Below, piece after piece: positions 14,101-64,000 of a stretch of DNA of 64,000 nucleotides (position 1 is its first letter; every line of letters starts with the position of its first letter). The DNA is from a virus. Both the position numbers and the translations under genes were made by a program. The notes under the pieces are model-generated. The model was not told the origin of the DNA, did not search any database, and saw only the letters and a list, made by a program, of their open reading frames with translations. Where the stretch lies: the IMG/VR virus record IMGVR_UViG_3300027861_000001, positions 85,054 to 149,053 of that record; one strand, 5' to 3'.

Positions 14101-15763
14101 CAGCATTGTTAGTTAAGTCTATATTATCAGCACCAGCAAAGTCGAAATTAACAAGATCACCTATTTCATTGTCTGTTGTTCTAATTAAACCAGTACCAGA
14201 GGCTACAGCAATTTGACCAGAATCAGAGTCTGTAATTTCAAAACCAGTAATAACACCGGCTGAAAAAGTATTACTTATATGTGCTTGTACACTGTCGAAC
14301 GAAGGAGTACCAATACCATCAAGACCTATGAGAGACGCCCCAGCTGATCCATATGTTGTAGAGTTTAACTCTGTTTGTCTATAATAAATATCATCTTTTA
14401 CTTTAAGAGTATCAGACTCTATTTCTATAGTATCATCATCAACATTTACTGATATTGTTCTATTCTCTGCTATTGTTCCTCCACCAGTAAGACCATCACC
14501 AGCAGATATTGTTACTGTAGTATGATCAATATGTTCATCAGCAACAAAATTGGCTAAGTCATTATGATCTATTTCATTATCAACAGTAGAAATTAATACG
14601 GTATCACCAGCATCAGTCTCTACTAAGATTCCACCATTACCTTCAATTGTAAGTGTATCACCATGTTCAATTACTTGATCTGTTCCAGATTCGGCAGCTA
14701 CAGTAAAGTAATAAATCCCGCTTGGTGCAGCATTTACCCAATAACCTGTTGCTGAATCATATTGAAGAAAGTCGTTGTCAGCCACACTAATAATACTTAC
14801 ATCTCTAAGTTCATTAATATCTGTATTTGCAGCAACAGTGTCTGCCAACCCTGATAGTGTAGTATTTACCCACTGACCTCCGCTGTACATTATAAGCTCA
14901 CCAGTGATAGGTGAATCTATAGCTACATCGTTTAAGTCATCTAAACTACCACTACCAGACACAGTAATCATAGTTCCATCTGCTGCAACGCTAACAAAAC
15001 CAATACCAGATACAGTAAGTTCTCCTGTTAAATCATTTACTTTATTAACGATTGATTCATAATTCCATTTGGTATTGGAATCTTTGTAAATTAAAGCATC
15101 ACCGTCTGCCAAAGTACCAGACATTACATAGTGATTCAATATTTGCTCTGCGTTCCAATGGGCGGTTTCTGACCCAACCATATAGTATTCCACGTCATGT
15201 GGATTTGTAGTATCTAATATGTGAGTATCAATATCGTCATGGCTATACAAACCAATATTTTGTAGTAAATCGTGATCTATTTCCGTATCAACGAATGTTA
15301 AGTTAACATTATTATCACTACCGGAGACTGAGATAACTGAGTCTCCAAGTATTTTCTTGAACTCTAGGTCTACTCCAGCTTTTTGCTTGAAGATTCCGAC
15401 ACCACTAACACCAACGTTTGAGGCAGTATTGTCCTCACCAACTTCATCAGGACTAAATCCTGAGACAGTTATGGTTTGTCCATCTTCACTTATAGTTACA
15501 CCACCAGACCCTGCTAGCGTGGCAACACCAGCAACGCTGTTAATGGTTTGTACATAAACACCACTCAATCCACCTGGAGCAGAAGAAAACTCTAAACCGT
15601 CTTCTCCAGCTGTAACCCTAACAAATTGCATTGCTGCACCACTATAACTATCAGGTGTATCTTCTAAACCAGTAAAATCATACCCACTAACTGTGTGCCC
15701 AGATACAGCTTCATACAATTGTCGTGTTAATATCGGACCTACCGAATCATGATAAACTAACAT
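11144..15763 (-). CDS. Long tail fibre / receptor-binding protein (1539 aa)
   Basis: G/S/T/D-rich; fibre motifs LDDLNDVAI...W-x-N, AGDGLTGGG, HNGLGGLDGG...YYHLT; six C-terminal ~98-aa repeats; at the end of the tail operon. Confidence 0.85.
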   Translation of the reverse strand: MLVYHDSVGPILTRQLYEAVSGHTVSGYDFTGLEDTPDSYSGAAMQFVRVTAGEDGLEFSSAPGGLSGVYVQTINSVAGVATLAGSGGVTISEDGQTITVSGFSPDEVGEDNTASNVGVSGVGIFKQKAGVDLEFKKILGDSVISVSGSDNNVNLTFVDTEIDHDLLQNIGLYSHDDIDTHILDTTNPHDVEYYMVGSETAHWNAEQILNHYVMSGTLADGDALIYKDSNTKWNYESIVNKVNDLTGELTVSGIGFVSVAADGTMITVSGSGSLDDLNDVAIDSPITGELIMYSGGQWVNTTLSGLADTVAANTDINELRDVSIISVADNDFLQYDSATGYWVNAAPSGIYYFTVAAESGTDQVIEHGDTLTIEGNGGILVETDAGDTVLISTVDNEIDHNDLANFVADEHIDHTTVTISAGDGLTGGGTIAENRTISVNVDDDTIEIESDTLKVKDDIYYRQTELNSTTYGSAGASLIGLDGIGTPSFDSVQAHISNTFSAGVITGFEITDSDSGQIAVASGTGLIRTTDNEIGDLVNFDFAGADNIDLTNNAANWIYVGYSGGTPVVSSTTDLNSVSFNDEFIIGRVYRDDNELHIVAAGQYYMNNPHILGYRMWELYGLQRASGMVLTETGDRNLDITAGVMYIAQKRHVTVATDTSDTDTFSLWYRDGGTGWTESTGETQIPNTVYDDDSGTPATLDNNKYGVFWVYQHDDGDVHVIMGQDSYTLADALDSTVPEGLPNKVISVGLLIARITIAKNETSSFTNISTPWNGGVVSAGVTVHNGLGGLDGGTANEYYHLTNSEHTELTGWLDNVTLGAAGALTLPTGQNFAVGSTQWNTGDNLSAAALSGTIPAHVLQTEWDAAYTHVSSDGSDHTYIDQDVTIGATPTFSGMYVTKDIDMQGNGIINIDQITPTLTQSLQVLTVTGGVGVDIISTQDGTTGAILILRQDSASPATWDTVGRIDFKGEDDASNQTIYAKIEGLIYDSSNGSEDGLLDFYAMKDGAITLAARLGASWTHYFYTAGSGLGMVIQNTEDGATGCSLTLRQVSASPATNDSVGYLAFSGKDSGDNTLNYAAIYGQIGDPTNGSEDGRIRMYVTEDGGWVEKFRMDGGGDNYLYTTIANTGLYITNTQDSSGGAILTLYQNSASPAAWDNIGKVSFRGEDSASNNHVYAYIVGYIYDPTNGAEDGGVSIYLMEAGAEKQRFQMYGGGDNYLYTTAANTGLYITNTQDGATGAYLTLYQNSASPAAGDVIGSIEWRGENDASANHDFVRIDGVIANPANGAEDGRMSFYVIHDGSMLRKFRLDDTENYFYTTTAETGLYITNTQDGATGATLTLYTDSASPAINDAVASIVIKGNDTVGAVTYSQILCSILDNSWGDSDGLLDFQVTEHGSTPVSKLKLTGSGQNILYASDSNYGLRIQCATDGVSGALLDIYTNSASPAAADIPAKIRFAGENDATEEIQYAHIDCGLRVVTDGSEQSRLRFYVMDGGVDTEMLQLDGTDGVYINADGALELVSVGANDSGGAGFKYLRIPN
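11220..12980 (-). repeat. Six tandem ~98-aa (~294 bp) coding repeats in the tail fibre C-terminus
   Basis: Recurring TQDGATGA-x-L-x-L-x-x-x-SASPA-x-x-D...G-E-x-D...NG(S/A)EDG. DNA-level similarity, e.g. ttggtgatataaag at 12072 and 12366 (294 bp apart). Confidence 0.9.
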
Positions 15764-20457: not shown

Positions 20458-23400
20458 TTACCTCGAATTTGTTAAACTCTTACCCCTACTTTTTTGACCA
20501 GCCCTTGAAGTTAAATTAAAGTTATCAGGATCACCAACTAACATTGCTTTCATATTAGTAAGAAGCTGACCCATCTTAACGTTAAGATTATCCATTTGCC
20601 CCTCTATACTAATTAATGTACCATTACTTTGAGTTAGAATGTTATCCGTAGAACTAGTATCAACAATTAAAGGAGCACCAGGTTCTGTTCCTAACATAGG
20701 TGTTGTTGGTTGAGCTTGTAGTGGTTGAGACATTGGTACACCAGCCAACATTTGATTAGTCATATTAGGAATTAAAGCAGCTTGAGTTTCATTCCACCAA
20801 GCACGTTTACCAACGTGATAACCTGTAGGAACATTATACTCAACTTCAACCATAGCTTGAGTATTTTTTTCTATTTCTCCTGTTAGTGCATTAAGCGCAA
20901 ACGTGTTAGCTTCTTCACTATAAATAGCATTTTTATCAAGACTAGGATCATAGAAAGAAAAGACACCTTTTTCTGTTTTACCAAACAACTGAGCAATTCC
21001 AAGTAAAGATTGATATCTTTGTCCCCATTTAGAACTAGAGTCTGTAAGCCCTTGTTGTATCTTATTAATTATATCAAGAGGTTTACTTTGAATATCACCC
21101 CAATTGATAAAGGAAGTTACCCTTTTAACTGCCCCCTGAGCTATAAGGTTAACATTTTCTAGTTTTACTAAGTCATCACTAAGTGTAGAAACTGTCTTTA
21201 TTATCTCGTTTAACGAAGCCAGAGTTTCCGCATCGTTGGTAAGTTCCAACTTTTTGTTTAGGTGTTCTAAAACATCACCAAGATTTTCTTGTGTTATCTC
21301 GCCAAACACATCTGGGAGAAACCCTTTAGCATCTTTTGCTTGTTGACCGGTTATAAATGAATTCCAGCTTGTGTTAAATGTAGTAATCGTTCCTGTAACA
21401 CTTTGTAATTCCTCTAGCAGTTCAGGAGCATATTTTTTTACTTGCAAAAACTGTTCTAGAGGAATAGCTTCACCTAAAGCAGTATATTCTTCACCCAACC
21501 TTGACACTTCTTCTAAATGTGTAGCATATGATAAAGCAAGACCACCATAAACGTCCTTTAACATTTCAAAGTCTTCGGCAGACATGGTTGATCTACCCTC
21601 TAAAAGTTCTTGCATTAACTCTCTTTCTATTGCTAATAAGCTCTTACCACCAGTAGTTATTCCACCAACCTCTGAAGCAATTACACCAGGATATGTAGTG
21701 GAAAGACCAATCTGTCCGGCTTGCATTGATTCACCTAATTTACCAGTCATAAGACCAAACGGTGCTCTGAAGTCAAGGTTAGCTACTGACGATAAAATTT
21801 GGAACATTTTTTCAGTTCCTACTATTTGTCGTTCAGTATACTCAACATTTCTTTCTAAAATAGAGCTAACTTCTGCTTGGATTACAGCATACGCATTACC
21901 AGCTACCGTTACAGCTTTTTGAGTTTCAGCATACTCCTCAGCCCACTCTACAGCTAATCTATAGGTTTCAGCATCTTCTTTATATCTATCAGGAACTATT
22001 CCACCTTCATCAGTTAAGGCTTTTAATCCTCTCATAGCCGCAACAGTCCACTGAACTTCATCGCTTATGTTCTGCCACTCAACAAAACCATGTTTAGTTG
22101 CTTCGTTTAGTTCTTCTTGGCTTATTAAACCTAACTCTCTTGCTCTCTCAAGCTCAGGTAATGCACCAAGACCTTCTTTCCACGCTTTTTTTGCTTCATA
22201 GTTTTGTTTAAGAAGCTCAGCCGAATGTTGTATTTCTCGTGGAGCAAAATATTCAGCATATTTAGCTTGTCTACCACTACCAATTTTAGGATATTCTTTC
22301 TTAGCTTCTTTCCTTAATTCCTTTATTTGCTCTTCTACAGTAAATACACTACCTTCGTCTACATCAGTAGGATGATAAACTTCTTGTATAATCTCTTGAA
22401 CTTTAGTAGCAAAATCGGTAGAGACATCATCAAATATGTTCTTAAACATACCCTTCATTTTGTCTTCTGAAGATATCATACTTTTAACAATGGTATCCGC
22501 AATAAATCCACCAACTGCACCACCAGCAGCCATTCCTATAGGGCCTCCTAGAGCTAATCCAACACCACCACCAAGTCCCATTCCTGCCGATTGCCAACCA
22601 CCCATACCAAGTCCTTGTCCTACCATACCGAGCATCATACCACCCATCATACCACCACCAGCGCCAGCACCACTAGTACCCCAACTAGCAGCACCTCTAC
22701 CTACTCCTGCCCATGCTTGTTTAGGTCCACTCCAATCCCAACCTCTTGGGCTGTACCAAGCACCACCAGTTGCCGGTGCGGGTGGAACAGCTGATACTCT
22801 TCTCGTCATAGCTTCTCTATACCCGCGCGGGTCTTTTGGGTCAAGAACTAGAGTCTGTAATGCTGGAGTAGCTGCTCTACCAGCAAAAGCTGGTCTAGCA
22901 GTATCCCTAACCGGTAAAAATCGTCCAAAACCTTGTCGCATAGCTTGCATCCGTGTAGTACCAACCGATGCTGTTGTCACTAATGCTAATCTATTTTGCG
23001 CTGCTGTTAAGTTAACTGCTGCCATTTGTTGATTAGCTGTTGCTTTTAGTAATCCATTTTTTAATACTATTTCACGTCTTGTTAAAGAGGCCATTCTGTT
23101 AGTGTTTGTAGTAAGTAACTGATCAGAACGAACTCTAGCTAGATTAGCACTAGTCCTTTGTTGTTGTTGCTTAGCAAAAGCTGCTCTATTGGCAGCATCA
23201 GATACACCTAGCTTAGCAGCTGAAATTTGAGCACCCGAACCCCTCAAAGAAGCGGCTGGAACACCAGCAAACCCGGCAATACTAGCATCCATCATAGGTA
23301 GTTTTCTAGCAACACCAGCCAAACCACCTAACCAACCTCCTGCCGCTTTAGCTATCTTTAATCCAACAAATGCTGCTGCTAATATAGTTAATGTTTTGGC

Positions 23401-24651
23401 TAGAGTTAGTAATGGGCCATTTATACCAGATATCTTATCAAAAACAGTAGCTAATCCTTGCATCATGTTTGTCAAAGAACCAATTGCACCAGACTCTTTA
23501 CCAATAGTCATAAGAGCTTTATTTTGAGCAGCTGTAAATTTGTCCCAAGTATTCGCCAAAGTATTAACAATTTTTGCATTAGCATCAATAGCTTGTCCAT
23601 TAGCATTAGCAGAAATAGTAGACGTTGCTATTGCTTGATCAAAGTTATTTAACAAAGCAATAAATTGAGCATACCTTCTCTGCCCTGCACCAGCTGCTTT
23701 TGCTATTTCTAACCATGCAGACTCGTCCAACACATCTTGTTGTTTCATCGCTGATAGTTGAGACATAATGTCCCAATAGTTCCTTACTTCCCCAGCAGAG
23801 TCTCTAACAGCCACACCAAATCGTGACAATGTTTTTATAGACTCTTGGTTATATAAAGTAGACATCAATGCTCGAATCGCATTACCAACTTCTACTGGAC
23901 CTAATGTTACAGCCTCACTTAAAGCTGCAACAAGACCGTTAACTTGGTCAACATTTAATCCTGCTGAAGCCGCAGCACCTGACATTATAGCAAAACCCTG
24001 TGCTAAATCATTAACAGATGTTGCTGCGTTCTGCGAAACAGCTACCCACTTATCAAGCAGCATCATACCTTGGTCTAACTCCAACCCCGTCTGTCGTAAA
24101 GAACCAACTAAGATATCCATAGATTGTGAGTAATCCATTCCAGTAATATTAGCCAAAATAGAAGAATCACGTAACATTACAGTTGCTGTAGCCAGTCTCT
24201 TCGTCTCATTAGTAAGACTAGCTGTAGCTCGTAAAGCTAAATCCATACCCCTTAAGGTTCTTTCAATGGGCATACCAAATTCAATCGCCACGTCAGCTAC
24301 TTGTTTGAAGTATGTATAAAGTTCATCACCTACTTTTCCAGTAGTGATGCTTATTCTTGCTAATGAAAGTTCTAAGTCTTTCCAAACTTCTACAGTTTCT
24401 GCAAGCTTCTTAAATACTCCATAAACACCGAAAATCGCTGCTTGCCAAATAAGAACTTTCTTAGTAGCAATAGCAGCTTGGTTACCAAAATTTTCTAGTG
24501 TTATAGCACCACGAACACCTTCAGAACTAAAATTCATCATAGCTCTGTTTGTATGTCCCACAGCAGTACCCATAGATTGTATACCGCTGGTTGTTGCTGC
24601 TAATTGTTGCCCATACCCTTGGCTGGTAATTGGACCTGTAGTATATGCCAT
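20458..24651 (-). CDS. Tail tape measure protein
   Basis: 1397 aa, Ala/Gly-rich and helical; TP901-type N-terminal domain (GNAIRALMS...FGVAVRD..GEVR); follows the frameshifted chaperone pair. Confidence 0.93.
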   Translation of the reverse strand: MAYTTGPITSQGYGQQLAATTSGIQSMGTAVGHTNRAMMNFSSEGVRGAITLENFGNQAAIATKKVLIWQAAIFGVYGVFKKLAETVEVWKDLELSLARISITTGKVGDELYTYFKQVADVAIEFGMPIERTLRGMDLALRATASLTNETKRLATATVMLRDSSILANITGMDYSQSMDILVGSLRQTGLELDQGMMLLDKWVAVSQNAATSVNDLAQGFAIMSGAAASAGLNVDQVNGLVAALSEAVTLGPVEVGNAIRALMSTLYNQESIKTLSRFGVAVRDSAGEVRNYWDIMSQLSAMKQQDVLDESAWLEIAKAAGAGQRRYAQFIALLNNFDQAIATSTISANANGQAIDANAKIVNTLANTWDKFTAAQNKALMTIGKESGAIGSLTNMMQGLATVFDKISGINGPLLTLAKTLTILAAAFVGLKIAKAAGGWLGGLAGVARKLPMMDASIAGFAGVPAASLRGSGAQISAAKLGVSDAANRAAFAKQQQQRTSANLARVRSDQLLTTNTNRMASLTRREIVLKNGLLKATANQQMAAVNLTAAQNRLALVTTASVGTTRMQAMRQGFGRFLPVRDTARPAFAGRAATPALQTLVLDPKDPRGYREAMTRRVSAVPPAPATGGAWYSPRGWDWSGPKQAWAGVGRGAASWGTSGAGAGGGMMGGMMLGMVGQGLGMGGWQSAGMGLGGGVGLALGGPIGMAAGGAVGGFIADTIVKSMISSEDKMKGMFKNIFDDVSTDFATKVQEIIQEVYHPTDVDEGSVFTVEEQIKELRKEAKKEYPKIGSGRQAKYAEYFAPREIQHSAELLKQNYEAKKAWKEGLGALPELERARELGLISQEELNEATKHGFVEWQNISDEVQWTVAAMRGLKALTDEGGIVPDRYKEDAETYRLAVEWAEEYAETQKAVTVAGNAYAVIQAEVSSILERNVEYTERQIVGTEKMFQILSSVANLDFRAPFGLMTGKLGESMQAGQIGLSTTYPGVIASEVGGITTGGKSLLAIERELMQELLEGRSTMSAEDFEMLKDVYGGLALSYATHLEEVSRLGEEYTALGEAIPLEQFLQVKKYAPELLEELQSVTGTITTFNTSWNSFITGQQAKDAKGFLPDVFGEITQENLGDVLEHLNKKLELTNDAETLASLNEIIKTVSTLSDDLVKLENVNLIAQGAVKRVTSFINWGDIQSKPLDIINKIQQGLTDSSSKWGQRYQSLLGIAQLFGKTEKGVFSFYDPSLDKNAIYSEEANTFALNALTGEIEKNTQAMVEVEYNVPTGYHVGKRAWWNETQAALIPNMTNQMLAGVPMSQPLQAQPTTPMLGTEPGAPLIVDTSSTDNILTQSNGTLISIEGQMDNLNVKMGQLLTNMKAMLVGDPDNFNLTSRAGQKSRGKSLTNSR

Positions 24652-50360: not shown

Positions 50361-51932
50361 CTATACGTTCCATCCCCCTTTAGCTAAATCAGAATACTTC
50401 CCTCTAGCATTGGGTTTCTCCGGTGAGTAATATTCATAGTAATAACCGTATACCCACGTTAGCAAAGATGCTAATATGTGGTCATCTCCCTTTTGGCCAC
50501 CTTGAGCCGAATATACAAAGAACTTTGGTACACCTAACATGTCTCGCGTGAAACCAACCCTTTCAAGTTCAACTATAACATCTTCATCTTGCATAGAAAA
50601 AGCAATCATTTGATCGTTCTGACTCCACTTCTGAAGTGTTTGAATTGTGAACTTTCTAACCCTGTCCTTTATCTCTTTTTGCTCTTCGTCATACCCTGTA
50701 ACAACACTACCTTGGAAATCGACCATTATTAGTCTCTTTTCAAAGTCTTTATGTTTGAACTCATCACCCATTTGAAGCATTTGTCCCAAAGCCAAACCAC
50801 TAGACCCAGCATCAAGACAAACCATGTTGAATCTATATATATTGTCTAACCAATCAATAATTTTTGCTTGTGTTGGATACTTTATCCTTCTTAATTCATA
50901 TCTAGCAAAAATTCTCCAAACATCCTCGTTCCTATAAAGGATAGTTATTATGGTTGGATCGTTTGAAAATCCAGCGTCAATTCCGGCACAAACAAGGTCG
51001 TGTGGTTCATTAAATTCTGGAGCATTCAATATCTCATGAAAATTACCGTGCACAGACTCTAAGCTTAAATTGTTCATTAAACTAACAGTCACTGGATAAT
51101 TTTCTATCCTCATCAACTTCCTGTCAAAAACTGAGAAGGCTGGTGACCCGTGTTCACCTAAAACTAGATGAGTATAGTCATCACCCTGTTCACCACCGTA
51201 CTGCTTTAAGTCTGTCTCACGTTGCTCTACTGTATATCGAGGGCTTTGCAGCCTTGATACGTTATGCTTAGAATATTTTTCGTCTACTTGATCACACTCA
51301 AACAATACGTTCTTCTCTCGCAACCCGTTCGGAACACCGCTTACCCACAAAGTAAAACCTTCGTCCCACGTAGTCAAAACCTGTTGTAGTGAGTTCCAAG
51401 CAACATTACTAAACACCTGCCCCTCATCAACATAAATGCAAGGTACGTGCAATCCGATAACATTACTGTCAGCAGTTGATCCTACAATCCTACACCGTAT
51501 AGTAGACCCATTCTCCAACTTTATTAAATGTTCTCCAAAGTTTATACTGTTCTTTAACACAAAATGCTTTAAGAATGGGTGTCGTCTGAAGAAGGTAGCT
51601 AACCGAAGAAATACTGGTTCTAGCTGAGACTTGTTTTGAACAACTAACAAAACCTCATTGTCACTCGCTTTCAGAAACTTATTAGAAATAACATCATGAA
51701 TTATACGAGTTTCCATACTTACGGTCTTACCAGTAGAACGACCAGTACATGCAACTATGTAATGACTTTTATCATTTAACAGTAACTTCTGGTAATTATC
51801 AAAACACCATCCCAAGTCTGGTTCCCCAAGCTCGTCATCAATGGTACGTAGAAATTCACCAAAAAACACTGGATCATCCAGTACCTCTAACACTGCTAAA
51901 TCTTCGTCAGATAATACTACTTTTTCTTTCAT
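50361..51932 (-). CDS. terL: Terminase large subunit
   Basis: YQ motif; Walker A GRSTGKT; Walker B IYVDEG; nuclease GIDAG...D and DDH. Confidence 0.92.
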   Translation of the reverse strand: MKEKVVLSDEDLAVLEVLDDPVFFGEFLRTIDDELGEPDLGWCFDNYQKLLLNDKSHYIVACTGRSTGKTVSMETRIIHDVISNKFLKASDNEVLLVVQNKSQLEPVFLRLATFFRRHPFLKHFVLKNSINFGEHLIKLENGSTIRCRIVGSTADSNVIGLHVPCIYVDEGQVFSNVAWNSLQQVLTTWDEGFTLWVSGVPNGLREKNVLFECDQVDEKYSKHNVSRLQSPRYTVEQRETDLKQYGGEQGDDYTHLVLGEHGSPAFSVFDRKLMRIENYPVTVSLMNNLSLESVHGNFHEILNAPEFNEPHDLVCAGIDAGFSNDPTIITILYRNEDVWRIFARYELRRIKYPTQAKIIDWLDNIYRFNMVCLDAGSSGLALGQMLQMGDEFKHKDFEKRLIMVDFQGSVVTGYDEEQKEIKDRVRKFTIQTLQKWSQNDQMIAFSMQDEDVIVELERVGFTRDMLGVPKFFVYSAQGGQKGDDHILASLLTWVYGYYYEYYSPEKPNARGKYSDLAKGGWNV

Positions 51933-52477
51933 TCTTCGTTACTGTCCACAATTATATTGCCACATCTAGGACACTCCACCCTGAACGTATACTTAATAGG
52001 TGCTAAATCTACGTTCTCATAAGCGAGTGCTCCAGGTTCGCCGTGTTCTTTTATATACACGTGGTATTTACCTACCGGTAAACTGCAATCCTCACAAATG
52101 ACAACCTTAAGTCTCGAATCCATGAATTTCTTAGCTTGTGTTTTTAGTTTCTCTACATAGCTTAAAACCGACTCGTCAGACGCGCTATCACGCTTTCTCT
52201 TAGATATACCTAACTCGGTTTGAAGCTTAACCCATGTGGCAGTAGCGTCTTTTATAGAAGTCATTAAATCCTTTGCTTTTTTAGGATCGTCCTCTAACTT
52301 CTTAATTTTATTAAGAGCACTTTGAAGCTTTTCGATAGTAATCTCAAGCTCACACATTTGATGAATAGAAGCCATATCGTTGGTTTCATTCATATCATCA
52401 AGGTCGTACTCAGATAGATACCTGTCTATCTTCTCGTTTACTGCTTGTCCTTTTTTTGGTCTTCCTTTAGTTGCCAT
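51929..52477 (-). CDS. Terminase small subunit (by position), with C-terminal Zn ribbon
   Basis: Overlaps the TerL start; KGRPKK N-terminus, helical core LQTELGIS..KR, CEDC...CPRC. Confidence 0.65.
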   Translation of the reverse strand: MATKGRPKKGQAVNEKIDRYLSEYDLDDMNETNDMASIHQMCELEITIEKLQSALNKIKKLEDDPKKAKDLMTSIKDATATWVKLQTELGISKRKRDSASDESVLSYVEKLKTQAKKFMDSRLKVVICEDCSLPVGKYHVYIKEHGEPGALAYENVDLAPIKYTFRVECPRCGNIIVDSNEE

Positions 52478-57443: not shown

Positions 57444-57863
57444 TTATTCTTTTTTATTATTTTGTTCGGATAACAACCGCCCTATGTCAGGTGGAACCCA
57501 TCCAGGTGGTTTTAGTCTTTTACCATCTAATCTAACAGGTCCATCTTTCTTAGCCATGTTAGTGGTATGGACTTCGTCCCAAATAGGTCTAAGGTCAATA
57601 CCGTAGGCAATACACATTCCCAAAATTACAACAATAGAGTCTGCGGCTGCATCAGCTATCTCAACAAGATCATCATTAACAAGAGCAGGGAGTAGCTCTG
57701 TATTGACTTCCTCTTTGATTAACTCTATCCGAAGCTTCTTTGTATCTTCGTCTGGTATTTGTGGTTTACTACGACATTTTTGCTCCATAGCAGTCATAAA
57801 ATCTTTTATATCTTGATACCAATCCATGCCTTCTCCTTTAATTTGGTCCTGCACCTGGTCCAT
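57444..57863 (-). CDS. MazG-like NTP pyrophosphohydrolase (PRA-PH/DR2231-type, possible dUTPase)
   Basis: LIKEE..E, EIADAAAD, EVH.TNMAK, DGKRLKPPGW.PPD. Confidence 0.88.
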   Translation of the reverse strand: MDQVQDQIKGEGMDWYQDIKDFMTAMEQKCRSKPQIPDEDTKKLRIELIKEEVNTELLPALVNDDLVEIADAAADSIVVILGMCIAYGIDLRPIWDEVHTTNMAKKDGPVRLDGKRLKPPGWVPPDIGRLLSEQNNKKE

Positions 57864-58300: not shown

Positions 58301-58696
58301 CTATAAAATATCTCTCTTAGAAATAGCGTTTAATAAAACGTAATCATTTATTAGTTGAAAATCCCACTCTGATAAATACTTTAAATATTTATGTATATTA
58401 GACTTAAAGAACGGAGTCAAATAGATTCTATCTAAATCTTTAAGAGGGAGATTAAGAATTATATGTCTACCAGTATTACTTGAAATTAGTAACTTCTGAG
58501 TATCTTTATTAACTATTAAGTAGTTACCTTCATTGGTTTGTTTTATAAAGTTATATGTTTGGATATCCACCCAAGCATCACCCCCAACCTTCGAACCTAC
58601 TCTTGCATCCTCTATGTACTCTAAGTAATCTTTTGTAATAGATACTCTGTAAGGAATATAATCAATTGTAGAAGCATATATTGTTTTTAAATCCAT
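58301..58696 (-). CDS. Hypothetical protein
   Basis: GGGGGAG SD; directly behind a promoter. Confidence 0.65.
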   Translation of the reverse strand: MDLKTIYASTIDYIPYRVSITKDYLEYIEDARVGSKVGGDAWVDIQTYNFIKQTNEGNYLIVNKDTQKLLISSNTGRHIILNLPLKDLDRIYLTPFFKSNIHKYLKYLSEWDFQLINDYVLLNAISKRDIL

Positions 58697-58712
58697 TTAC
58701 TCCCCCATTATT

Positions 58713-58743
58713 ATTATAGCACACACGCACTCGTAGTTGTCAA
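58713..58743 (-). promoter_or_regulatory. Promoter TTGACA-N19-TATAAT
   Basis: Reverse complement reads TTGACA actacgagtgcgtgtgtgc TATAAT. Confidence 0.7.
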
Positions 58744-58957
58744 GCCCCTTTTTACGATCAATTTTTACTAAATTTTATTAGTTTTATTAAAATATGAAAT
58801 ACGGCATATATTCAATATTTTTTTTATAATTTTTTTCATGCCAAGTAATCTCTAAAATAAGGAAAAAATAAGGATATTGTATAGTATACCTAACCTAAAA
58901 ATGCCCAACTCGAAATATTTAAATTTTTCTTATACTCTCTGAGGGTAACACAACAGC

Positions 58958-59032
58958 GAGACGACGTGAGACGGGTCGAGTTATGTTGAGACGGGGCGGG
59001 GGTACTTGATACGGGTTGAGACGACTTTTATA
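58958..59032 (+). repeat. Array of GAGACG repeats phased at 10 bp
   Basis: GAGACG at 58958, 58968, 58988 and 59018; GATACG at 59008; partial GAG at 58978. Confidence 0.8.
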
Positions 59033-59041
59033 ATATAATAA

Positions 59042-59072
59042 ATAAACGAGGTGTTGTTAGCACCTCGTTTAT
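59042..59072. terminator. Hairpin terminator after the island genes
   Basis: ATAAACGAGGTG-ttgttag-CACCTCGTTTAT. Confidence 0.75.
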
Positions 59073-59094
59073 AATCTAGGAAAGTTAGCACTTG

Positions 59095-59319
59095 TTAATA
59101 TCCGTGATGTAACACTCTGCTATCATCCTGTAAACATGGTTCAAACTTACACGTAAATGGTCTTTCAACTAATAAACACTGGTTACCAGCGTTGTGAAGT
59201 ATGCAAGGTTTACTAGGGTTTATTTTTGCGTTCCATATGTGAATAGCTTTGTTTAGCTTGACTTTGTTCGAAGAAGTTAGCAAGTCTTTAGATTCTATCC
59301 CACTTCCAAAATATAACAT
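59095..59319 (-). CDS. Small hypothetical protein in the island
   Basis: AAGGAAT SD-like sequence; lies between two hairpins. Confidence 0.5.
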   Translation of the reverse strand: MLYFGSGIESKDLLTSSNKVKLNKAIHIWNAKINPSKPCILHNAGNQCLLVERPFTCKFEPCLQDDSRVLHHGY

Positions 59320-59340
59320 TTATTCATTCCTTTTTAGGTT

Positions 59341-59366
59341 TGGGGGAAGGTGCTACCCTTCCCCCA
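59341..59366. terminator. GC-rich hairpin downstream of the 261-aa gene
   Basis: TGGGGGAAGG-tgctac-CCTTCCCCCA. Confidence 0.7.
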
Positions 59367-59378
59367 TTTACCTAAAGT

Positions 59379-60164
59379 TTACTTCCGTTTACCTTTGGTT
59401 TTTGGTGGTGGTGGTGATTCTGGAAGTGGTATTGTTTCGGGATTGATAAGGATTTTGTATCCAGCTTTACTATTGGTTGGAATTTGTTTTACACCATAGT
59501 TTGAGGTTTGCAGTTCTTTCTCAATAGCAGGAGTGGAGCAAAACAGATTGATTGGTTTTACAAGTCCCTGTATCATTTCGCATCTGACAGAGTCTTGCTC
59601 ACGTGCTAAGGTACTTCCGTCTTTCCAACCAGATTCGTGTCTAACGATCATATTCAGTGGATTGATGTCTTTGTCACGTTGTATCAATCCGTTGTGGTCA
59701 AATGGGTGTTTGGGTACTGAGTAGGGGATATATGCTCCGTCAAGCAAACTGGAATGGTATCCCAATACTTGCATTGCAATACCAAACTCTACCAAAAAAT
59801 CGGTCTTTACTTGTTCTGGTTGCTCATACCAATTTGTCAGCATCGTGGTATTGAGGTACCTTGCAACCGTGTCAGCACTCGTTTTAATGTCCAGTATAAT
59901 TTGCTTGTCTTTCTCACGTTTCCCTTCACTGGTTGCGGTTTGCGTGGTTTGTGCATTTACCACTATTGCACTCGCAATGTCTATTGGAATCTTCATAACA
60001 TCGGATAATTTTTGTGCGTCCGCACCAAACTCCAATGCGTTATTCACTTTCGCAACCGCAATTTTGAGAGGTTCTTCGGTAAACTTTCCCTTATCATCGA
60101 TAGGTGCTATATGGTAGCTTGCACCCTGTTTTGTCCAACCATATATTAATGTATCTGTGGTCAT
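59379..60164 (-). CDS. Hypothetical 261-aa protein (candidate pre-early gene)
   Basis: GAGGAG SD, own promoter and terminator, atypical codon usage, Pro/Lys-rich C-terminus. Confidence 0.8.
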   Translation of the reverse strand: MTTDTLIYGWTKQGASYHIAPIDDKGKFTEEPLKIAVAKVNNALEFGADAQKLSDVMKIPIDIASAIVVNAQTTQTATSEGKREKDKQIILDIKTSADTVARYLNTTMLTNWYEQPEQVKTDFLVEFGIAMQVLGYHSSLLDGAYIPYSVPKHPFDHNGLIQRDKDINPLNMIVRHESGWKDGSTLAREQDSVRCEMIQGLVKPINLFCSTPAIEKELQTSNYGVKQIPTNSKAGYKILINPETIPLPESPPPPKTKGKRK

Positions 60165-60300
60165 TTTTTATACTCCTCTTTTTTTTTTTGTTTCCAGTTA
60201 AAACAAACTATAAGCGTTTTACCTGAGTTTGTTTCCTCTCTATTTGATTGTTAAGGATAGGGTTACTTGGTTTCCATCTCACCTTTCATCCTATGTATAG

Positions 60301-60330
60301 ATTATACCAGCTAACCTTTCAACTTGTCAA
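60301..60330 (-). promoter_or_regulatory. Promoter TTGACA-N18-TATAAT
   Basis: Reverse complement reads TTGACA agttgaaaggttagctgg TATAAT, with an AT-rich upstream region. Confidence 0.75.
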
Positions 60331-60554
60331 AATTTTGCTACGTGTGAAAAAATAAAAGATTGGTAAATAAGATAAACGTTCGGTAAAAATGGCAGCGATT
60401 TGGATTTATAATCGTGTTAATTTCAATGTTATGGTAAGTTAAAAATAAACACCCCCAAATTTATAAAAATGCTAACTTTTGAGGAAATTCTCCTGGGAAT
60501 ATAAAAGTCGTATTAAGACGTCTCACACGCAAAATTTTTGCGATCTGTGGTTTA

Positions 60555-60732
60555 CTTTACATAAAGGGTTTAGTGCGACCCAAATACACCTTAAAACGAC
60601 TTGAGACGTCTTTTCCACTCGTGGCAACTTTACATAATAATTTACATAAGAAACTATCTATCTACACATTATGTCAAGTAATAATCACGTTATGTCAAGT
60701 AACATTATGTCAAGTTGGCTTATTTGACATAA
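60555..60732. repeat. Cluster of seven TT(G/T)ACATAA motifs in both orientations
   Basis: TTTACATAA at 60556, 60629, 60641; TTATGTCAAGT at 60669, 60690, 60705; TTGACATAA at 60724. Confidence 0.8.
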
Positions 60733-60886
60733 AATTTTTTTCTCTGTCTTTTTTGCCAGCATTAAAATCGAGAACAGAACTTTATAGCCGACATGTTTTG
60801 CCTGAACGGAACCTGGACTTCTGGCTTTTATGCCAATTGTAAAAAGCCTGAACGGTGAACCTGGTGCTGGCTATTTTGCAAATACA

Positions 60887-61033
60887 TTAACGAAGTATAG
60901 ACTCGGCTACAGTAGAACGTACCTTCTGTTGAACTTGAAGCCAAATATGATATTCTTGTACTGTAACTCCCTTATCTAAACGGGCTTTATCGCACTCTTT
61001 GTCTATCCAATCTTTTAACTCAACCAGCGTCAT
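60887..61033 (-). CDS. Small early protein, 48 aa (MTLVELKDW...; below the ORF-track cutoff)
   Basis: AAGGAG SD; manual translation. Confidence 0.6.
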   Translation of the reverse strand: MTLVELKDWIDKECDKARLDKGVTVQEYHIWLQVQQKVRSTVAESILR

Positions 61034-61043
61034 TTCATTCTCC

Positions 61044-61208
61044 TTAATGGCTATTTTGCAACTCTTCTAGCTTCTTCTTTAGGTTGGATATTATTAGTGG
61101 GTCTCTTATGGCAAATTCCTCTACACAAATAACATAATGTATTTTAGGCTTTCTCGTTGCTTTAAATGCCCTGGCTTCTTCGATTGAAATCTTTTCAAAT
61201 GTAGCCAT
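61044..61208 (-). CDS. Small early protein (start corrected to MATFEK)
   Basis: TGATG coupling with the upstream 24-aa ORF. Confidence 0.55.
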   Translation of the reverse strand: MATFEKISIEEARAFKATRKPKIHYVICVEEFAIRDPLIISNLKKKLEELQNSH

Positions 61209-61282
61209 CAGAAGTTCATTACTCCGGCAAATATGAGTAATCCTAAAAGAGTTGTCCAAATTAGCTTATCTTCTATCTTCAT
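61208..61282 (-). CDS. 24-aa single-TM micropeptide MKIEDKLIWTTLLGLLIFAGVMNF
   Basis: Fits exactly between its neighbours, with stop/start coupling. Confidence 0.5.
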   Translation of the reverse strand: MKIEDKLIWTTLLGLLIFAGVMNF

Positions 61283-61283
61283 C

Positions 61284-61514
61284 CTAGTAATCCACACCAA
61301 GGATGTCCGAAATACTCTCGCCAGTCTCCTCTCCCCATTGCTCTCGTGATGCTAGCAGTTGACCAGACATATTGTAATCTCTGCCACAGTCACAAGTGTT
61401 GGTGAATCCCATCAGGAGAACTTCCTCACCACAAACGCATTGGGCTACTTTGCGGTTTACCTCCCTCATTTGGTTATTGAGAACCTTCTCTGTTCTTAAG
61501 ATTTCAAGTGACAT
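61284..61514 (-). CDS. Small Zn-ribbon early protein
   Basis: CVCG...CDCG; GGAGG SD. Confidence 0.7.
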   Translation of the reverse strand: MSLEILRTEKVLNNQMREVNRKVAQCVCGEEVLLMGFTNTCDCGRDYNMSGQLLASREQWGEETGESISDILGVDY

Positions 61515-61768
61515 TAATTTCCTCCTTTCATATTAATCATATCGGCTACAGCTTCTGCAAACTCATATTTGTCTAAGTCGGGAGAGATAAACTCTGATAC
61601 ATCCACATTGCCAGGAAGTTCTTCAAATCTAATACCGTACTTCTTTAGTAACAACCCGTTGGCTACTTTCTTAGCATACTCAATAGCTTCCTTTTCTGTT
61701 GCCATCCGAGTTGTATGCTTACATGGATCGAAGCCTATACCTCCACAAGTCTCACATTTTTGCAACAT
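61514..61768 (-). CDS. Small early protein
   Basis: AGGAGGTG SD; behind a promoter cassette; CETCGG.G motif. Confidence 0.7.
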   Translation of the reverse strand: MLQKCETCGGIGFDPCKHTTRMATEKEAIEYAKKVANGLLLKKYGIRFEELPGNVDVSEFISPDLDKYEFAEAVADMINMKGGN

Positions 61769-61788
61769 TCCTTCACCTCCTTATAATG

Positions 61789-61834
61789 ATTATACCACTA
61801 GCCCACCAAAAAGTCAAGTGGTAATTTGCTGCCA
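61789..61834 (-). promoter_or_regulatory. Early promoter cassette TGGCA-N12-TTGACT-N17-TATAAT
   Basis: One of four aligned copies. Confidence 0.8.
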
Positions 61835-61968
61835 GGTGCTGGTAGATTTATGCTGTTACTCATGGCTTATAAGCCACAATAGGTTGAAAGGAGTAAGCTG
61901 GCTAATCCGAAGAGCTTACTCCCTCCAAGGAGGGTAAAAAATGAGAACCTTTCGGCTTTAATGCATAA

Positions 61969-62283
61969 TTATTCCTCTTTATGAACAGCCACAATCTCGC
62001 AAGACTCTCTTGATTGTAGTTCTAAGATAGCATAGTAGGTATTTAAAGCTATGTGGTAAGCTTCAGTGGCTTCGAGCAACCATTGTGAATAGCAGGCTGC
62101 ACCACTATAATCCCCACGAAAAGCTTTGTCGGCTATTTCCCTGTCAAGCTTCTCTATGGCTTCTTTGCTGTACCTGACAGCAAATATGGCTGTTTTGCGT
62201 AGGGTTTGGTAATCCAGTTTTACACAGTCGGACGATATATCATGATACATTTTATCACTTCCCACAGTTAGCAATGTGATCAT
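61969..62283 (-). CDS. Hypothetical early protein (probable start MYHDISS at 62250)
   Basis: The upstream ORF ends at 62255. Confidence 0.6.
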   Translation of the reverse strand: MITLLTVGSDKMYHDISSDCVKLDYQTLRKTAIFAVRYSKEAIEKLDREIADKAFRGDYSGAACYSQWLLEATEAYHIALNTYYAILELQSRESCEIVAVHKEE

Positions 62284-62425
62284 CGGCTATTTTAGCGCAT
62301 CTCATCAATTCGTCTCTTGCAGCTTTCCTACCTTCAGTAGTATCACCATTGATTGCCACTTCAATCAACATTGGTAACACACCCTGCCACGTGGGAGTAC
62401 AAACAACGAAATCATTATCACTCAT
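62255..62425 (-). CDS. Small early protein, 56 aa (MSDNDFVVCTPTWQGVLP...; below the ORF-track cutoff)
   Basis: Manual translation; fills the operon gap. Confidence 0.65.
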   Translation of the reverse strand: MSDNDFVVCTPTWQGVLPMLIEVAINGDTTEGRKAARDELMRCAKIADDHIANCGK

Positions 62426-62431
62426 AATTCA

Positions 62432-62638
62432 CTACCTTACTTTAATAATGATTCCGTTTGCAATGGTAGCCGTAGCGTACCATTTGTGTGGTTGTGGGTA
62501 ATGAGGGCCCTCTATACAGACATTGCCATCTTTTTGACTAGGGAAGATACCTCCAGGCTGATAAACTGGTATCTGTTTCCCTGCTTTGAAGTCAGCCACC
62601 AATTCCTTCTTTGTTTGATAGTTCTTTTCTGCGTACAT
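62432..62638 (-). CDS. Small early phage protein (EGPHYPQPHKWYA motif)
   Basis: AGGAGGTG SD; behind a promoter cassette. Confidence 0.75.
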   Translation of the reverse strand: MYAEKNYQTKKELVADFKAGKQIPVYQPGGIFPSQKDGNVCIEGPHYPQPHKWYATATIANGIIIKVR

Positions 62639-62657
62639 ATCTCACCTCCTTACATAT

Positions 62658-62703
62658 AGTATATCATCTGCCCGAATAAAAGTCAAGGAGCAGTTTAGTG
62701 CCA
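62658..62703 (-). promoter_or_regulatory. Early promoter cassette TGGCA-N12-TTGACT-N17-TATACT
   Basis: One of four aligned copies. Confidence 0.8.
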
Positions 62704-62785
62704 CACCTATACCCAGGCTATTTAGCCTAGATACAAGTATAGACACAGGCTATAAAGAACCTATGCCTATTATGAACAGGAACAA

Positions 62786-62980
62786 TTACTCTGGCTTTAA
62801 TGCTCTTAGTATTTTACCTCCATTGCATTCTGCCGTACCTTTGTACTCACAGGACTCACAAGCCCTTAAACCCATGACTTGAACAAGGAAACAATCGCTT
62901 GTCATTTCGCTCTGCGGCTTTGAGTAGGTTTCTGTCTCAACGAACTTGCCATTGACTATATCACCTATAACTAAGTCCAT
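62786..62980 (-). CDS. Small Cys-rich early protein
   Basis: GGAGGGAG SD; C...CESC...C. Confidence 0.7.
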   Translation of the reverse strand: MDLVIGDIVNGKFVETETYSKPQSEMTSDCFLVQVMGLRACESCEYKGTAECNGGKILRALKPE

Positions 62981-62997
62981 GAACTCCCTCCTTCCGG

Positions 62998-63204
62998 CTA
63001 TTCTACTCTCTTTCCTTCATTATCTACTAAGATATAACCACCGCACCCCTCGCAAAGAACTTGTGCTAGTTTCCCCTCACCGGCTAATCCGACAAAGTCA
63101 TTAGGTAACCCTTCACCGAACAACTTTTTGGTACATTCCTCACAGAAGTCAGCCATCATCTTCTCCTTTTGTCTTTGGATATGGATGCCGAAGCTTGTCC
63201 ACAC
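62998..63204 (-). CDS. Small Zn-finger early protein (probable start MADFC near 63156)
   Basis: FCEEC...LCEGCG; AGGAG SD before the internal ATG. Confidence 0.7.
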   Translation of the reverse strand: MWTSFGIHIQRQKEKMMADFCEECTKKLFGEGLPNDFVGLAGEGKLAQVLCEGCGGYILVDNEGKRVE

Positions 63205-63284
63205 TTAGGACAGGTGGCTGGAGAACCATTACCTCTCCAAGGCTTACCACATTTGACACATACCTGTTTGGTTACTAACCTCAT
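63156..63284 (-). CDS. 42-aa Zn-ribbon micropeptide (MRLVTKQVCVKCG...CPKCG; below the ORF-track cutoff)
   Basis: ATGA overlap with the upstream gene and TGATG-type coupling downstream. Confidence 0.6.
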   Translation of the reverse strand: MRLVTKQVCVKCGKPWRGNGSPATCPKCGQASASISKDKRRR

Positions 63285-63562
63285 GATGTTCTACCTATGA
63301 TCTCGGTATGAATACCAAAACTTCTCCAGCGGGCTTGGGTATAATGTTTGCTTATGACTGTCATGCAATACCTCTTAAACCCTTGTATTTCTTTGCCACC
63401 AGGAAGAATTGCGGCTGTTATGACAACATCACCTTGTATATCTCCAACATCATACCTTAACATATCAGCAACAACTTCCCTTGCAACCACCTCTGGTACT
63501 GCACCTTCCACTAATAAGCTGTGGACAGTACCCTTGACCTCCAATATGTAGCCTTTTCCCAC
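63281..63562 (-). CDS. Hypothetical early protein
   Basis: AGGAGGTG SD plus GTG; behind a promoter cassette. Confidence 0.7.
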   Translation of the reverse strand: MGKGYILEVKGTVHSLLVEGAVPEVVAREVVADMLRYDVGDIQGDVVITAAILPGGKEIQGFKRYCMTVISKHYTQARWRSFGIHTEIIGRTS

Positions 63563-63582
63563 GTCTCACCTCCTATACAAGT

Positions 63583-63628
63583 ATTATAACATTAGCCTGA
63601 GTCAAAGTCAACAGGTAGTTTGATGCCA
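63583..63628 (-). promoter_or_regulatory. Early promoter cassette TGGCA-N12-TTGACT-N17-TATAAT
   Basis: One of four aligned copies. Confidence 0.8.
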
Positions 63629-63713
63629 ATTACTCATTACGGCTAATGTGCCATAGTAAAACATGGAAGAAATCCAAGCCAGACGCTTGAACTTCTTCCG
63701 TAGGAGATAAGAA

Positions 63714-63872
63714 CTATGCTTTGATTAGTTTCTTAGCCGCTGTACCAAGCTCCTCTCTATCAGTTTCAGATAGTTCTTTCAGTTCCTTCATGGAAACCTT
63801 GGAACCACCTTCGGCTTCAAAGAAATTCTTGATTGCTTTGACATTGGATATTTCGGCTGTCTCTGTAACCAT
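63714..63872 (-). CDS. Small early protein, 52 aa (MVTETAEISNVKAIKNFF...; below the ORF-track cutoff)
   Basis: AGGAGGTG SD; directly behind a promoter cassette. Confidence 0.7.
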   Translation of the reverse strand: MVTETAEISNVKAIKNFFEAEGGSKVSMKELKELSETDREELGTAAKKLIKA

Positions 63873-63892
63873 ATTCACCTCCTTCACTGTAT

Positions 63893-63938
63893 ACTATAAC
63901 AGCTGCCTAACTGGAAGTCAAGTAGTAGTTGGATGCCA
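63893..63938 (-). promoter_or_regulatory. Early promoter cassette TGGCA-N12-TTGACT-N17-TATAGT
   Basis: One of four aligned copies. Confidence 0.8.
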
Positions 63939-64000
63939 GGTATATCCTCTGGCTAATATGCCTAGAATGATATATTCTAGGCTGATCTGACATTCACACG

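Follow-up and report, generated by a model that had tools for sequence, protein, structure and literature searches.

What might a phage gain by keeping one gene unit clear of a three-letter word that the neighbouring DNA carries at regular steps? The question is raised by a locus in IMG/VR virus record IMGVR_UViG_3300027861_000001, of which we analyzed positions 85,054 to 149,053 (64,000 nucleotides, hereafter the window, whose coordinates are used unless genome positions are named). The window is the final 64 kb of a 149,053-bp contig. We write GSC for GGC or GCC, a word that in this form is its own reverse complement. An earlier reading of the letters alone (the sequence-only reading) had claimed that GSC is missing between 58998 and 60390, and it is: the flanking sites stand at 58995 and 60391, leaving a 1396-bp gap that is the largest in the genome. 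No equally long GSC-free run exists elsewhere in the genome, the runner-up gap measuring 802 bp. If the lone site at 60391 is counted in, the GSC-poor zone extends to 60622. The expectation for the island is 14 sites from genome frequencies and 20.6 from a local dinucleotide model. We slid 1400-bp windows over the whole genome and compared all 32 strand-symmetric trinucleotide classes with the expectation from local dinucleotides; the island emerged as the top trinucleotide anomaly genome-wide (0-1 seen vs 20.6 expected, p=2.5e-8), followed by an anomaly with p=1.3e-4. Its G+C is an ordinary 38%, and not one of its 42 GC dinucleotides is flanked so as to form GGC or GCC (P=1.7e-7). Every reading frame lacks the word, as do the non-coding parts. 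Correcting for composition matters here, as a naive exponential gap test across 607 k-mer classes ranked the island only 6th and gave the better ranks mostly to A+T-rich words. Rank 2 in that naive test is a 2.2-kb run without CACA/TGTG at 21518-23731, within the tape-measure gene. Two smaller claims proved accurate as well: the adjacent 60716-61230 contains 18 GSC sites by count, and the plus-strand excess of C over G is lost in the island, with a GC skew of +0.16 to -0.11 vs about -0.2 to -0.3 in most windows outside.

The island had also been described as carrying one self-contained transcription unit, and we agree, having found a promoter, ORFs of 261 and 74 aa and a terminator, all on the minus strand. 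The unit and its surroundings are laid out as follows.

60391 to 64000, no strand: the part of an even GSC array that lies in the window, with 78 sites and 38% of gaps at 24-39 bp
60669 to 60714, minus strand: three direct repeats of ACTTGACATAA
60517 to 60610, no strand: inverted pair GACGTCTC / GAGACGTC, upstream of the promoter
58998 to 60390, no strand: the GSC-free run, 1393 bp with zero GGC or GCC
60301 to 60330, minus strand: promoter TTGACA-18-TATAAT with TG extension, a perfect sigma-70 promoter (12/12 matches)
60165 to 60294, minus strand: 5' leader of about 130 nt, ending in a strong Shine-Dalgarno sequence, AAGAGGAG
59379 to 60164, minus strand: 261-aa ORF (P0001), member of an unannotated phage family
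59342 to 59365, minus strand: G+C-rich hairpin GGGGGAAGG / CCTTCCCCC, directly after the stop codon and with no T run
59095 to 59319, minus strand: 74-aa ORF (P0002), putatively coding
59042 to 59072, minus strand: intrinsic terminator, a 12-bp stem followed by a T-rich tail
58956 to 59024, minus strand: four direct copies of CGTCTC at steps of 30, 20 and 10 bp, just beyond the terminator
58301 to 58745, minus strand: the next unit, comprising a promoter and an ORF of 131 aa, within a GSC-free run of 451 bp

Upstream, the free run reaches about 97 nt past the likely start site, and downstream it stops about 40 nt beyond the terminator; with borders so near these two points it equals one transcription unit. 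Its promoter is the best host-type promoter of the region. Leaders are long in relatives too, where 174-260 nt separate the -35 and the start codon, and a search for structure shared among the 5' leaders of the family loci found none; nor were homologues of P0002 found. Past the terminator the word returns at once, with four GSC sites in 250 bp of directly adjoining intergenic DNA, and the first GSC downstream of the island falls within the CGTCTC array. CGTCTC repeats bracket the island, and we considered such arrays as a conserved boundary, an idea we rejected on finding them in one relative only. The 131-aa unit was likewise rejected as a second conserved island, its counterparts in relatives showing background depletion only (25 seen, 51 expected). 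Further upstream, the non-coding stretch 60760-60890 contains three (C/T)GTTC(A/T)(G/C) repeats, two of which read CCGTTCAGGC, together with the palindrome TTGGCATAAAAGCCAG; relatives have CTGTTC followed by GGC-N6-GCC at a comparable place. These repeats may constitute a second regulatory element.

The 261-aa ORF had been taken for an orphan, which it is not. With P0001 alone as the query no relatives were found among viral contigs, and a full HMMER scan returned one distant relative. The family is described from two other searches: phage relatives obtained through the terminase (67-76% identity) have a syntenic gene that aligns with P0001 end to end, and family loci were obtained with a query alignment led by a central family member. 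Profile searching yields at least 51 P0001-family clusters, all metagenomic and all without Pfam domains, and the gene is syntenic in related uncultured phages of 130-150 kb. An AlphaFold2 model of a central member (pLDDT 86.8) predicts three short helices as the N-terminal domain, then a long hairpin of antiparallel helices, and a tail, extended and conserved, around GWxDGS and (K/R)xGY. The predicted three-helix domain and long hairpin would be compatible with a dimeric DNA binder, a fit and not a demonstration of one. Pfam, PHROGs, Rfam and NCBIfam returned nothing for the two island ORFs. Among neighbouring ORFs, Pfam, PHROGs and Rfam named only a MazG-like gene (57444-57863), NCBIfam gave a chance-level match for the ORF next to the island ORFs, and Pfam named none of the genes of the array. 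Fold searches with both family models produced nothing significant (Foldseek E 0.78 or worse; VIA Z <=6.6, with matches confined to the helical hairpin), and searches of the family by PDB sequence profile and against the ESM Atlas gave no usable match. This lack of a significant fold or family match, like the lack of named genes in the array, counts against the explanation that we prefer below.

The family made it possible to ask how widely the motif-free state is kept. DNA from 30 homologous loci falls into 18 lineages at <85% nucleotide identity, among which the G+C of the gene ranges between 38 and 59%. In 11 lineages the gene has no GSC site, in five it has 1-4, and in two it has a normal 14-21, such that the homologous unit is free or nearly free of the word in 16/18 diverged lineages. 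Pooling 15 lineages (12.3 kb), we counted GCC 2 times against 107 expected and GGC 4 times against 127, or 6 GSC in total against 234; the next lowest trinucleotide reaches an observed/expected ratio of 0.61. Measured from the gene start, free runs typically begin at about -300 and stop somewhere between +750 and +1400, and their flanks mostly hold 17-36 GSC/kb (5-10/kb at three loci). Conserved glycines are written GGC in two close array-bearing relatives and GGT, GGA or GGG in island-bearing relatives, with the lone exception of a GGC at one site in one of the latter. Judged from these alignments, the motif-free state is real, under selection and made by synonymous codon choice. At 11/11 loci the upstream edge of the free zone lies 41-109 bp before the -35, so that untranscribed promoter DNA is included. 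In two lineages (loci L035, L037, L048 and L051) a regular array runs through the family gene instead, and at L051 the promoter of the family gene has a GGC in its spacer. The free and arrayed states have therefore been switched at least twice among close relatives, and exemption is not obligatory.

Next to the island the same word is plentiful and evenly spaced. The array crosses the contig junction and reaches about genome position 11,500, some 15 kb in total, with a density of 23 GSC/kb vs 8/kb elsewhere in the genome. In the array the observed/expected ratio is 1.0-1.2, compared with 0.7 in the background; abundance in the array is thus close to what composition predicts, and the unusual feature is the arrangement. 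In relatives, the lengths of the gaps between sites plateau at 24-39 bp, with a steep fall at 40. The coefficient of variation (CV) of the spacing is 0.40-0.54 in relatives' arrays (0.75 at one short locus) and 0.68 here. When all 32 trinucleotide classes were compared in two relatives and this genome, GSC had the lowest CV in each set, the others lying at 0.74-1.5, and against random placement the spacing gives z = -5.9 here, -7.0 in one relative and -11.7 in another. Even spacing emerges only when GGC and GCC are pooled, and the orientations of neighbouring sites are independent. The word is raised in all three frames within the array, where GGC takes a 0.22 share of the glycine codons, against 0.05 for the background and 0 for the island. 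In pair correlation, damped peaks appear near 31, 62, 93 and 125 bp. A strict 31.5-bp lattice was rejected, the periodogram peak being no higher than the noise of other words, and we accordingly describe the spacing as short-range even only. In three genomes GSC density rises toward the island and then collapses: from 8 to 27 per kb over about 15 kb in this genome, from 16 to 27 over about 30 kb in a 148-kb relative, and from 10 to 28 over about 70 kb in a 134-kb relative. Gene orientation diverges at about 15 kb and converges at about 55 kb (genome positions); the array is confined to the first 15 kb of the leftward arm, and the rightward arm has none. We found no earlier description of this GSC spacing pattern in the literature, and the even spacing upstream of the island is new here.

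GSC also occupies fixed places in regulatory DNA. The common promoter of this phage, TTGACW...GGCnTATGRTATAAT, is found across the genome (61789-61817, 63583-63611 and 10817-10845 in the window; 14656-14684, 75663-75691 and 81038-81066 in genome positions) and has an invariant GGC in its spacer at -21, joined in several copies by a second GGC that abuts the -35, at -38. Unlike this type, the island promoter has no GSC in its spacer or upstream, and GGC at neither -21 nor -38. In the one array-bearing relative examined, in which the gene lies within the array, the promoter does have GGC in its spacer. Intergenic DNA of the array additionally contains GGC-N6-GCC palindromes, often in tandem; palindromes of this kind are the usual form of a dimer operator.

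A strong pattern that turns up again in independent metagenomes, spelled out at synonymous sites, implies that something reads GSC. Our preferred explanation, to which we give a probability of roughly one half, makes GSC the core site of a factor that is specific to this phage clade and works on duplex DNA, and from which the 261-aa unit is exempt by design. The factor could be a DNA-binding protein or a site-specific modifier. It would decorate the early leftward arm at about one site per 24-39 bp, and would also sit at the fixed positions in common promoters (-21 and -38) and at the GGC-N6-GCC palindromes. The 261-aa unit, kept site-free from about 40-110 bp upstream of the -35 through the terminator, could then be expressed by host RNA polymerase whatever the factor does elsewhere. 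We infer that a protein reads GSC on DNA and that being read represses or blocks. The 261-aa protein might be this reader itself, or it might be a product that must escape the reader or must always be made.

The closest functional analogy for an even array that includes promoters is protein p6 of phage phi29. We know of no exempt gene in phi29. Protein p6 coats the phage's own DNA, each dimer taking a fixed step of 24 bp, and silences a very early promoter (PMC4974454). Unlike the factor proposed here, p6 reads bendability and not a base-specific word, and its step differs from the 24-39 bp of the present array. We found no homologue of p6 in this phage, and the even sites that include promoters (CV 0.40-0.68, z -5.9 to -11.7) make for a likeness of pattern, not for membership in the p6 class.

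A second comparison concerns modification. The motifs modified through DpdA in phage CAjan are reportedly GA and GGC. DpdA-dependent 7-deazaguanine modification at two motifs has been reported for that phage (PMC7544227), and dPreQ0 of a related phage is reported to protect against restriction enzymes and Cas9 in vitro (PMC10484667). DpdA phages differ from this one in that there is no report of even spacing or of an exempt unit for them and in that this genome has no TGT/DpdA gene: PF01702 was absent here and matched in 14/14 control genomes. On the gene content of the assembled contig a DpdA-type modifier is therefore excluded. The genome lacks a C5-type DNA methyltransferase, and Pfam, searched with most ORFs of at least 110 aa, lists no DNA methyltransferase. 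Genes noted at genome positions 1-85,000, together with the MazG-like pyrophosphatase gene of the window, encode a PurA-like adenylosuccinate synthetase, a dCMP deaminase, a weak thymidylate-synthase-like protein and a deoxynucleoside kinase, as well as RtcB, a UDG-family protein, a GGDEF protein, a CCA-adding enzyme and a DruA homologue. PurA-like and MazG genes together hint at a non-standard base, and a DatZ-type HD enzyme was not found in the genome. A 2-aminoadenine (Z-base) genome, considered on the strength of this pair, was set aside as weak, the HD domain present being that of the CCA-adding enzyme.

The sequence-only reading, with T5-like phages as its model, had proposed that the island is first-injected or terminal DNA purged of a motif recognized by a host defence, with the 261-aa protein as a candidate anti-defence or takeover factor, made first. 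We consider this unlikely. It has real points in its favour, among them the strong host-type promoter and the self-contained unit, and the sawtooth in GSC density, which breaks at the island and could mark a physical genome end. In T5, sites are exposed to EcoRI and CRISPR only when they lie in first-step-transfer DNA, and the sequence content of that segment matters for surviving host nucleases (bioRxiv 10.1101/866236). Like T5, this phage has a delimited early part of the genome in which strong host promoters lie. It differs in that a 3-bp word is missing from a single unit and is evenly spaced in the adjoining early DNA. No link to T5 was found: megablast of the region against the phage collection gave no match, and the terminase matched a single record there, at 22% identity. 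Nearness to the contig end, on which a terminal position would rest, is an assembly artefact, since the first and last 127 bases of the contig are identical, which indicates a circular-assembly overlap and makes the contig ends arbitrary. The island is also missing in two lineages.

A purge of a restriction motif fits poorly for further reasons. No 3-bp word is known as a restriction site, and GSC stands at about its expected frequency, evenly spaced, in the adjoining 15 kb, as well as at four sites in the 250 bp of intergenic DNA past the terminator. Avoidance of restriction sites and PAMs is similar in that short words are selected through synonymous sites (PMC4246573); known cases, unlike this one, are whole-genome and run in one direction only. 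Here GSC is excluded from one unit, held at 0.7 observed/expected in the background, and regular in a third domain. The usual sign of restriction avoidance, a word of at least 4 bp depleted genome-wide, is absent for GSC. It is present for GGCC in relatives and partly so here: two complete relatives (148,197 and 134,397 bp) have no GGCC against 147 and 165 expected, a textbook case of total loss, and this genome has 37 against 116 expected. The relatives' loss does speak for a real pressure from a GGCC-type system, as the proposal of a purge would have it, but it is ordinary avoidance of such a system and belongs to a different layer than the even GSC spacing. The strength of GGCC avoidance differs between close phages. 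What survives of the sequence-only reading, then, is a real, selected motif-free state in a self-contained unit; T5-likeness, a terminal position and a restriction purge are not supported by these data, and the protein is no orphan.

It could also be that the word is read in RNA: an endoribonuclease of phage or host would cut at GSC, early mRNAs would decay fast, and the site-free 261-aa mRNA would persist. Precedents exist in ACA-less mRNAs under MazF and in T4 RegB, where transcripts lacking a word of 3-4 nt escape a sequence-specific nuclease, and the logic of such systems has the target word enriched in early mRNAs. The match of the free run to one transcription unit is consistent with this idea, as is the equal absence of GSC in both orientations from the sense strand. 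Because GSC is strand-symmetric, orientation alone cannot separate a DNA-level from an RNA-level reader. Evidence against it lies in DNA that is not transcribed. In the ACA-less type, exclusion is confined to transcribed sequence; here the free zone includes untranscribed promoter DNA at all 11 loci, and GSC itself has fixed promoter positions outside the transcript and occurs in intergenic palindromes. Moreover, inactivating an mRNA does not call for a maximum gap of 39 nt. We regard RNA-level immunity as quite improbable.

Lower still we place a packaging region, in which the 261-aa protein would be the small terminase and the island would hold a pac site kept clear of the motif. The predicted helical N-domain, long hairpin and conserved tail do resemble a small terminase. 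The gene is also fast-diverging and has the large terminase 7 kb downstream of it, and the top Foldseek match of both models is the G20c small terminase, at a non-significant E of 0.78-0.99. But a better candidate lies at 51932-52477 on the minus strand, where a 182-aa ORF overlaps the large-terminase start. It matches the P27 small-terminase family weakly (E 0.027); its N-terminus is basic and its C-terminal part contains two CxxC pairs (a faint zinc-ribbon Pfam match), and from these features it is likely the small terminase. A strong sigma-70 promoter of its own would in addition be unusual for a late packaging gene. Finally, chance, codon bias or recent import from a genome poor in GGC and GCC, for which one could cite the island's deviant GC skew, is excluded for practical purposes by the synonymous-site switching and the conservation across 16/18 lineages spanning 38 to 59% gene G+C, on top of the composition-corrected p=2.5e-8 and the absence of the word from all frames and non-coding parts.

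Returning to a factor that reads GSC on duplex DNA, we can extend the idea, more tentatively, to a version that is possible though we would not bet on it. These phages may lay a GSC ruler along the early genome, leaving no stretch longer than about 36 bp without a site, with a phage factor that coats or modifies each site and to which the 261-aa master gene is invisible. Were this true, the ruler could amount to a phage chromatin that times early transcription. Alternatively, it could be a shield that places a blocked base in every window of CRISPR-protospacer size. In either case the 261-aa family would be the reader's gene, or a gene that must run regardless. Avoidance of short words by phage genomes is well known. 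To our knowledge, even spacing of a 3-bp word over tens of kilobases, with one conserved gene unit exempt from it, is not known in phages. Identifying the reader could bring to light a new means by which phages organize, time or protect their incoming DNA, and would also assign a function to at least 51 unannotated protein clusters.
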